Assembly (NCBI RefSeq): GCF_003334335.1
Contig: NZ_QOWQ01000196.1
Origin: Escherichia coli
Lineage (GTDB): Bacteria; Pseudomonadota; Gammaproteobacteria; Enterobacterales; Enterobacteriaceae
DNA length: 410 bases
Strand: one strand, 5' to 3'
Under the pieces are notes generated by a model that saw only the letters and a list, made by a program, of their open reading frames with translations, searched no databases and was not told where the DNA came from. Position numbers and translations under genes: made by a program. Of this stretch, positions 1-401 are shown one piece after another (the first letter of the stretch is position 1; every line of letters starts with the position of its first letter).

Positions 1-401
1 GCAAGCACCTCATTTTTTGTTGGGGTGCTTTTTTTCAATTCAGCGATATAGCACTCCAGTTTTTCAATGCGTGATTCGATATCATCTTTTTCTGACAGTA
101 TCGTGTTATATGCATTGTTAATTTGTATGGTATACCGATCTTCGGAACAAAGGCACTTTTCCTGTGACTGTTCATCCCCTTCACATAACCCGGCAGCAAT
201 ATCCATGAAAAACTGCTTCGCCTTCTTTTTCGCCTCAGCTTCGTAAAACTCCAGCGGGGCACCTTCAACACGATCAAGATCAATCACCACATTTGGCAAC
301 AACAGTGACGTATACCCACCCGTTTCCAGCGCTACAGTAACAGTAATCTTATCCGGGTAATTATTTATCCCTTTAACAACCAGTTCGTATTGTTTATTCA
401 T
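1..401 (-). CDS. Hypothetical protein, 5' portion only (start codon in window, 3' end beyond left edge). Visible product (133 aa): MNKQYELVVKGINNYPDKITVTVALETGGYTSLLLPNVVIDLDRVEGAPLEFYEAEAKKKAKQFFMDIAAGLCEGDEQSQEKCLCSEDRYTIQINNAYNTILSEKDDIESRIEKLECYIAELKKSTPTKNEVL...
   Basis: Manual reverse-complement translation: ATG at plus coordinates 401..399, then 133 sense codons with no stop down to position 3 (2 nt left over at 1..2). An in-frame TAG at 405..407 fixes this ATG as the first possible start. An open frame this long in AT-leaning DNA is unlikely by chance. The protein has a non-random make-up: alternating hydrophobic beta-like segments, an amphipathic Lys/Ala helix and a heptad-spaced Ile/Leu helix. 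Codon choice (CTG, CCG, GCG, AAA) looks like a Gram-negative enteric-type gene, but that is impression only. Not in the ORF track, consistent with the track needing an in-window stop. Confidence 0.78.
   Translation of the reverse strand, partial: MNKQYELVVKGINNYPDKITVTVALETGGYTSLLLPNVVIDLDRVEGAPLEFYEAEAKKKAKQFFMDIAAGLCEGDEQSQEKCLCSEDRYTIQINNAYNTILSEKDDIESRIEKLECYIAELKKSTPTKNEVL
5..35 (+). terminator. Intrinsic-terminator-like hairpin plus T-tract on the plus strand, embedded in the minus-strand coding region
   Basis: Plus-strand stem 5-11 (gcacctc) pairs with 22-28 (ggggtgc): 6 Watson-Crick pairs and one G-U wobble. Loop 12-21 (attttttgtt), followed immediately by T7 at 29-35. The loop is larger than in typical strong terminators (8 nt if a12:t21 also pair), so stability is only moderate. 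The orientation would terminate rightward transcripts entering from the left edge. Confidence 0.25.

Follow-up and report, generated by a model that had tools for sequence, protein, structure and literature searches.

A putative short helix of the coiled-coil type opening the modular helical tail of an Escherichia coli prophage protein of the DUF1327/YdfR family

A contig of 410 bp from Escherichia coli, which in its entire length is the window analysed here, contains only one long reading frame, on the minus strand. In the translation of this frame isoleucines and leucines recur at intervals of seven residues, and an earlier note had taken this ladder as the sign of a coiled coil or a leucine-zipper-like dimerisation segment. 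The locus raises the question whether the ladder reflects a helix of that kind, what sort of protein such a helix would belong to and with what it would pack.

The reading frame and its genomic neighbourhood

Two coding features are present in the window:

1..401, minus strand: 5' 401 nt of a DUF1327/YdfR-family gene (codons 1-133 plus 2 nt, of 197 codons), from translation
405..410, minus strand: final two codons (GAG TAG) of the class II holin gene upstream; the holin CDS of locus L001 ends at locus position 3006, which corresponds to window position 405

The ATG of the DUF1327/YdfR gene is located at 401..399 (minus strand). The frame runs for 133 codons and exits the window at base 1, where it is cut because the window is the complete 410-bp contig. 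Among the protein clusters the translation is represented by a partial entry of 134 aa (P0172), which comes from an E. coli contig of 410 bp, and a full-length entry of 197 aa (P0167) is identical to it over all 133 residues. Exact copies of the reverse complement of the window were found in three longer contigs (L008, L009 and L010), where they lie within a gene of 594 nt.

Residues 1-80 match model positions 1-80 of 93 of the Pfam family PF07041 (DUF1327) with E=1.8e-34, and the protein matches phrog_2091 with E~1.1e-62. The closest loci are annotated in RefSeq as DUF1327 or YdfR family. An NCBIfam profile search of the window protein revealed nothing significant, a sequence search against solved structures (PDB) gave no significant match, and the sole match in a PADLOC search, to Csm5 (E=0.004), is spurious. 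According to megablast the sequence occurs in lambdoid and Stx-converting prophages of E. coli, where it immediately follows a class II holin gene and precedes the one for lysozyme. The gene order in L008-L010 is esterase (SASA), DUF1378, DUF826, holin, DUF1327 gene, a convergent ORF of 86 aa, lysozyme, Rz-like and terminase, with the PF04971 holin directly upstream of the DUF1327 gene. By its significant match to the family HMM and its lambdoid lysis-cassette position beside the holin, the window gene is a DUF1327/YdfR family member of a lambdoid (Stx-phage-like) E. coli prophage, situated between the holin and endolysin genes.

Two of the related genes (L001 3010-3516 and L002 3010-3540) are called pseudogenes by RefSeq/PGAP ('incomplete; missing C-terminus', with ends at 3255 and 3351, respectively). 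Both can nonetheless be read without interruption, over 168 and 175 codons, and correspond to full-length members of the family. Intact ORFs of this family thus carry a truncated-pseudogene label in RefSeq, probably an annotation artefact of a short family model.

The heptad ladder, its conservation and its predicted fold

The segment in question is the following:

30..131, minus strand: heptad segment, residues 91-124, from translation, shuffle statistics and a COILS-type score

Its residues read TIQINNAYNTILSEKDDIESRIEKLECYIAELKK, and their codons occupy exactly window 131..30 of the minus strand. The translation bears out the ladder as it had been described, with I94, I101, I108, L115 and L122 at exact seven-residue spacing (d positions). 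The second, interleaved register of Y98, I112 and I119 (a positions) is present as well; residue 105 of the same register is a lysine. With d at 94/101/108/115/122 and a at 98/105/112/119 the canonical 3-4 spacing is obtained. Neither proline nor glycine occurs between residues 76 and 126, so that at least 3-4 contiguous heptads are free of helix breakers.

To estimate chance levels, the 133 aa were shuffled 20,000 times. In 6% of the shuffles a five-step i+7 ladder arose if I, L, V and M were counted, and in 21% if all hydrophobic residues were counted; 12% contained seven of eight hydrophobic a/d positions within 28 residues. At 3.5-residue periodicity the segment has the largest hydrophobic moment in the protein, a value that 3.4% of the shuffles reach. 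In one sequence alone the heptad ladder is therefore only weakly above chance. Its support comes from conservation and from a coiled-coil score.

That a ladder of this length appears in 6-21% of shuffles speaks for the view that the segment has no structural meaning, i.e. that it is a flexible charged linker, whose ladder and conservation stem from chance and from constraints at the DNA level (a recombination block and an antisense terminator). We regard this view as improbable, and the observations that bear on it are given with the alleles, the scores and the models below.

A leucine zipper of the bZIP type was considered and rejected, as Leu occupies only the last two of the five d positions (I, I, I, L and L), the preceding stretch SEDRYTIQINNAYN is not basic and there is no Pfam bZIP match.

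The family is narrow and strongly mosaic. A search of 1.84 billion proteins gave 54 representative clusters for it at E<1e-3, and at 90% identity the number of clusters is 205. Its proteins are assembled from modules A, B1 or B2, C, D1 or D2 and an optional module E:

Module A: the DUF1327 head
90..173, minus strand: module B1 (variable), a short linker, residues 77-104, QSQEKCLCSEDRYTIQINNAYNTILSEK, from the allele alignment
Module B2: a longer, proline-containing linker that replaces B1 in other alleles
54..86, minus strand: module C, the common block DDIESRIEKLE, 33 nt, codons 106-116, from the alignment with L001, L002 and L003
Module D1 (in this window): begins with CYIAELKKSTPTKNEVLAADEM; the alternative module D2 is NCVVELNKKLSTLMPSED
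Module E (optional): KKRRDEQFAAFYDYCIEVTRRNFVKAFEESKSLQ

Among the best 120 clusters the helix core is present in 65 and absent in 54, the latter including the YdfR of the K-12 type. The heptad positions were checked in 47 homologues. Positions 108, 112, 115, 119 and 122 hold I, V or L in essentially every sequence, whereas the N-terminal half of the segment (91-105) is not conserved. Positions 117, 118, 120 and 123 (f, g, b and e) vary among the same sequences. Downstream of residue 116 the DNA of the D1 and D2 alleles differs and adjacent positions change, yet a119 and d122 stay hydrophobic in both. In the D2 alleles the heptad extends to L126 and L129, and one allele class, which lacks exactly seven residues (GSVADLN), keeps the register. 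Both the persistence of a119 and d122 and the continued register argue against a linker without structural meaning. A Pro-Pro pair at 97-98 in the B2 alleles and R111P in eight sequences limit the conserved helix to about 3-4 heptads instead of five. Judged from the alignment, the conserved unit comprises about residues 99-125, or 111-130 in the R111P alleles.

The window itself is recombinant: as far as about codon 116 it agrees with L001-type genomes at 100% identity, and from there on it is identical to alleles of the L002/L003 type; in megablast the best complete genomes match query positions 1-357 only. Its L001-type 5' part gives way to the L002-type 3' part within or adjoining the 33-nt DDIESRIEKLE block, and this switch looks like a mosaic junction of lambdoid phages. 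As the block is common to recombinant alleles and is the site of the switch from the L001 type to the L002 type, it is a point in favour of the DNA-level explanation of the ladder.

In two family members, P0003 and P0006, most of the DUF1327 head is present twice, as an internal tandem duplication. Each of them is found on only one or two contigs, and the duplications may be assembly artefacts.

The coiled-coil score was calculated with a re-implementation of COILS that was validated on two controls only, and its result is indicative only. The positive control GCN4 scored ~1.0 across the zipper. The negative control T4 lysozyme scored low except for one 14-residue stretch at 0.74 (weighted 14-residue window). 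For the window protein this indicative score gave P>0.9 for residues ~96-125 with windows of 14, 21 and 28 residues, weighted as well as unweighted, in the register assigned by the earlier note, and nowhere else in the protein did P exceed 0.9. Three alleles with different flanks, namely L001 (D2 tail), L002 (B2 linker) and P0111, have an equal score at the equivalent place, and the high score in three allele classes again speaks against a mere linker. In sequence searches the tail gave only weak and non-significant matches, every one of them to a coiled-coil family or protein (HSBP1, DivIVA, DUF1664, influenza HA2 and a GCN4 chimera).

For the predicted structure, AlphaFold2 was run as a monomer on the exact 197-aa full-length sequence with an alignment of 47 rows. 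The mean pLDDT of this model is 60. The following structural features fall into the window:

162..401, minus strand: DUF1327 domain at the N terminus (residues 1-80), made up of three beta-strands and then a long helix, from Pfam and AlphaFold2
33..80, minus strand: helix 108-123 with the conserved a/d core I108, I112, L115, I119 and L122, from AlphaFold2 (pLDDT 70-78) and column counts

The head is modelled with strands at 5-14, 18-27 and 38-43 and a helix at 50-73 (pLDDT 65-85). Residues 74-105 have a pLDDT below 50 and are unstructured in the model, a point in favour of a flexible linker. Of the heptad segment, residues 108-123 are predicted as a helix with moderate confidence (pLDDT 70-78), whereas residues 91-107 are not modelled as helix. 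Two further helices, 129-159 and 167-195, follow in the tail. Helix 108-123 has the highest confidence in the C-terminal half of the protein, which counts against the linker view.

A surrogate for a dimer was modelled by joining residues 86-197 twice through a Gly/Ser linker of 30 residues, with an alignment of 13 rows (AlphaFold2). Residues 87-122 appear as one helix at pLDDT 39-53, and there is no confident interface. The mean pLDDT of 43.8 is too low to interpret, and the model consequently says nothing on oligomerisation.

In a second alternative the amphipathic helix is buried intramolecularly, packing on helices 129-159 and/or 167-195 in a monomeric hairpin or three-helix bundle, and has no role in oligomerisation. 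We consider this unlikely. The hairpin seen in the model would most likely be formed by the two 30-residue helices 129-159 and 167-195 themselves, truncated alleles such as P0031 (148 aa) retain the heptad helix with little behind it, and helices 129-195 have a coiled-coil score of about 0.

An antisense hairpin and convergent reading frames

The end of the heptad segment overlaps with a second kind of feature, encoded on the other strand. The hairpin, its counterparts and the convergent ORFs are located as follows:

3..35, plus strand: intrinsic-terminator-like hairpin with a 10-bp stem (3-12/21-30), an 8-nt loop and T7 at 29-35, from folding
L004 1896..1863, L002 3452..3412, L006 1576..1550 and L008 4399..4366: counterparts of the hairpin
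L008 4542-4802 and L003 954-1214, minus strand: convergent 86-aa ORF, phrog_2572
L004 1919-2194 and L006 1607-1864, minus strand: convergent 85-91-aa ORF, phrog_18136

The hairpin is antisense to the DUF1327 gene and lies within codons 122-133 (LKKSTPTKNEVL). Its folding energy is -15.5 kcal/mol (z -5.35), and none of 200 shuffles folds as well. On the plus strand, 3-35 thus consists of a GC-containing hairpin followed by a U tract, and a gene of the same orientation ends a short distance upstream of it in related alleles. In alleles that have D1 only, the hairpin is found ~21 nt past the stop of the convergent 91-aa ORF of phrog_18136 (L004 and L005, with a truncated copy in L002). In the allele type of the window (L003 and L008), where module E and the phrog_2572 ORF replace the phrog_18136 ORF, it is found 143 nt past the stop of the different, 86-aa ORF. 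From folding and position we regard the terminator-like hairpin as a putative antisense intrinsic terminator. In Rfam the hairpin resembles only the terminator end of GcvB, with a score below threshold, and a simple scan found no clear sigma-70 promoter for the convergent ORF.

The ORFs of phrog_2572 and phrog_18136 are unrelated to each other, and the tail module determines which of them overlaps the DUF1327 gene at its 3' end. Both sit among late-operon genes, on the opposite strand. A remnant of 57 aa, consisting of the helix core and D1 only, is found together with a convergent 85-aa ORF in L006 (Logan ERR11172743 contig, 264-1864), where it adjoins an MgtC-family gene outside any recognisable lysis cassette.

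In the divergent L006 the hairpin is found at the same place with two compensatory pairs (A-U to G-C and C-G to U-A), which appear in the protein as T126V and V132T. A conserved U.G pair and the variant of L004 allow pairing only in the antisense RNA. The statistic for compensatory changes is weak, as 57 of 500 shuffles reach the observed value and only four distinct sequences are available. The overlap of residues 122-133 with a strong hairpin, in which compensatory changes swap T and V, is a further point for an explanation of the ladder by constraints on the DNA. Part of the conservation of the helix (106-116) coincides with the DNA block of the recombinant alleles, and 122-133 is also constrained by the antisense RNA hairpin.

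The sense strand of this region contains two homopolymers, A7 at window 29-35 and A6 at 13-18. Three proteins (P0142, P0031 and P0095) read KKAPQQKMR and not KKSTPTKNE, which corresponds to the +1 frame from the A7 run as far as the hairpin's 3' arm. As KKAPQQKMR is the +1 frame of the same DNA, it points to a compensated or uncompensated homopolymer indel, which is either a real variant or a sequencing error.

A programmed -1 frameshift at A7 was also considered and rejected, as A AAA AAG is out of the zero frame and there is no spacer before the hairpin. The -1 frame after A7 would end after KHPNKK.

Interpretation and comparison with known systems

The coiled-coil score, the conservation and the partly helical model agree on an amphipathic helix of the coiled-coil type with ~3-4 heptads; the five heptads implied by the full ladder are not supported. 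We consider it fairly probable that the ladder marks a short amphipathic helix of the coiled-coil type, with which an optional helical tail of a prophage DUF1327/YdfR-family protein begins. Its core would span ~99-125, perhaps reaching back to ~91 in the allele of the window, and it would start a C-terminal extension which is optional, mosaic and all-helical and follows the DUF1327 head. The N-terminal DUF1327 domain, which is present without the tail in many alleles, would be the functional head; by homology to K-12 YdfR (see below) it may be an RNase E/RNA-binding domain.

The seam of I, L and V at the a and d positions is under selection and most likely forms a helix-helix packing interface. 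The partner in this interface would be either a second copy of the helix or the following helices 129-159 and 167-195 of the same chain. Self-association is plausible, and the helix could equally possibly pack on the downstream helices. In GCN4 variants, Ile at a, Leu at d and K/N at one a position are the rules for the parallel dimer type. With I at a, L at d and K/N at a105, a parallel dimer is suggested by this analogy for the family studied here. Three to four conserved heptads are short for an autonomous coiled coil.

As a structural feature a helix with heptad repeats is ordinary, and both the motif and the annotated family in which it occurs are of known kinds. What is added is a structural annotation, of small direct significance, for a narrow prophage family: a short coiled-coil-type helix with which a modular helical tail opens. 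Two bolder ideas are in our view very unlikely. In the first, the optional coiled-coil tail turns the YdfR head into a multivalent adaptor; if this were true, lambdoid and Stx prophages would, by exchanging mosaic tails, adjust their influence on host RNA decay near lysis. In the second, which is separate from it, codons 122-133 are a dual-use stretch; in that case the antisense terminator of a convergent moron gene would dictate the helix-ending linker of the protein.

The best structural matches of the AlphaFold2 model are helical-hairpin domains (antiparallel coiled coils of two helices) such as the cytosolic hairpin of Get1 and de novo designed helical hairpins. The likeness lies in the succession of helix, Pro-turn and helix, which the tail of the family has in all allele classes.

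The core of the helix (I112, L115, I119 and L122) resembles parallel dimers of the GCN4 type in having aliphatic or beta-branched residues at a and Leu at d. The polar K/N at a105, the charged e and g positions and a COILS-type score equal to that of GCN4 add to this likeness. Unlike in GCN4, the upstream d positions of the window protein are Ile, a basic region is lacking and the conserved part comprises only ~3-4 heptads. In the search against solved structures the sole match to a chain containing GCN4 was non-significant (E=0.13).

The closest system with functional data is YdfR from the Qin prophage of K-12 (P76160, PF07041). It belongs to the same family, the N-terminal domain of the window protein being 39% identical to the 103-aa protein of the K-12 type, and it occupies the same position in the lambdoid lysis cassette, beside a class II holin. 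In the literature functional data were found only for this protein (PMC13232886), and one other paper mentions DUF1327 just in passing. Two-hybrid and pull-down experiments showed that residues 1-72 of K-12 YdfR bind the catalytic half of RNase E, and RNA co-purifies with the protein (PMC13232886). In its AlphaFold model the C-terminal helix is directed away from the domain (PMC13232886). K-12 YdfR stops within the equivalent of B1, without the DDIESRIEKLE helix and all that lies beyond, whereas the window protein with its 197 aa has three extra helices. To link this tail to RNase E activity is speculation. If the binding of RNase E and RNA by K-12 YdfR holds for the whole family, the long alleles would be natural variants with a head plus an oligomerisation tail, in contrast to the tail-less protein of K-12.
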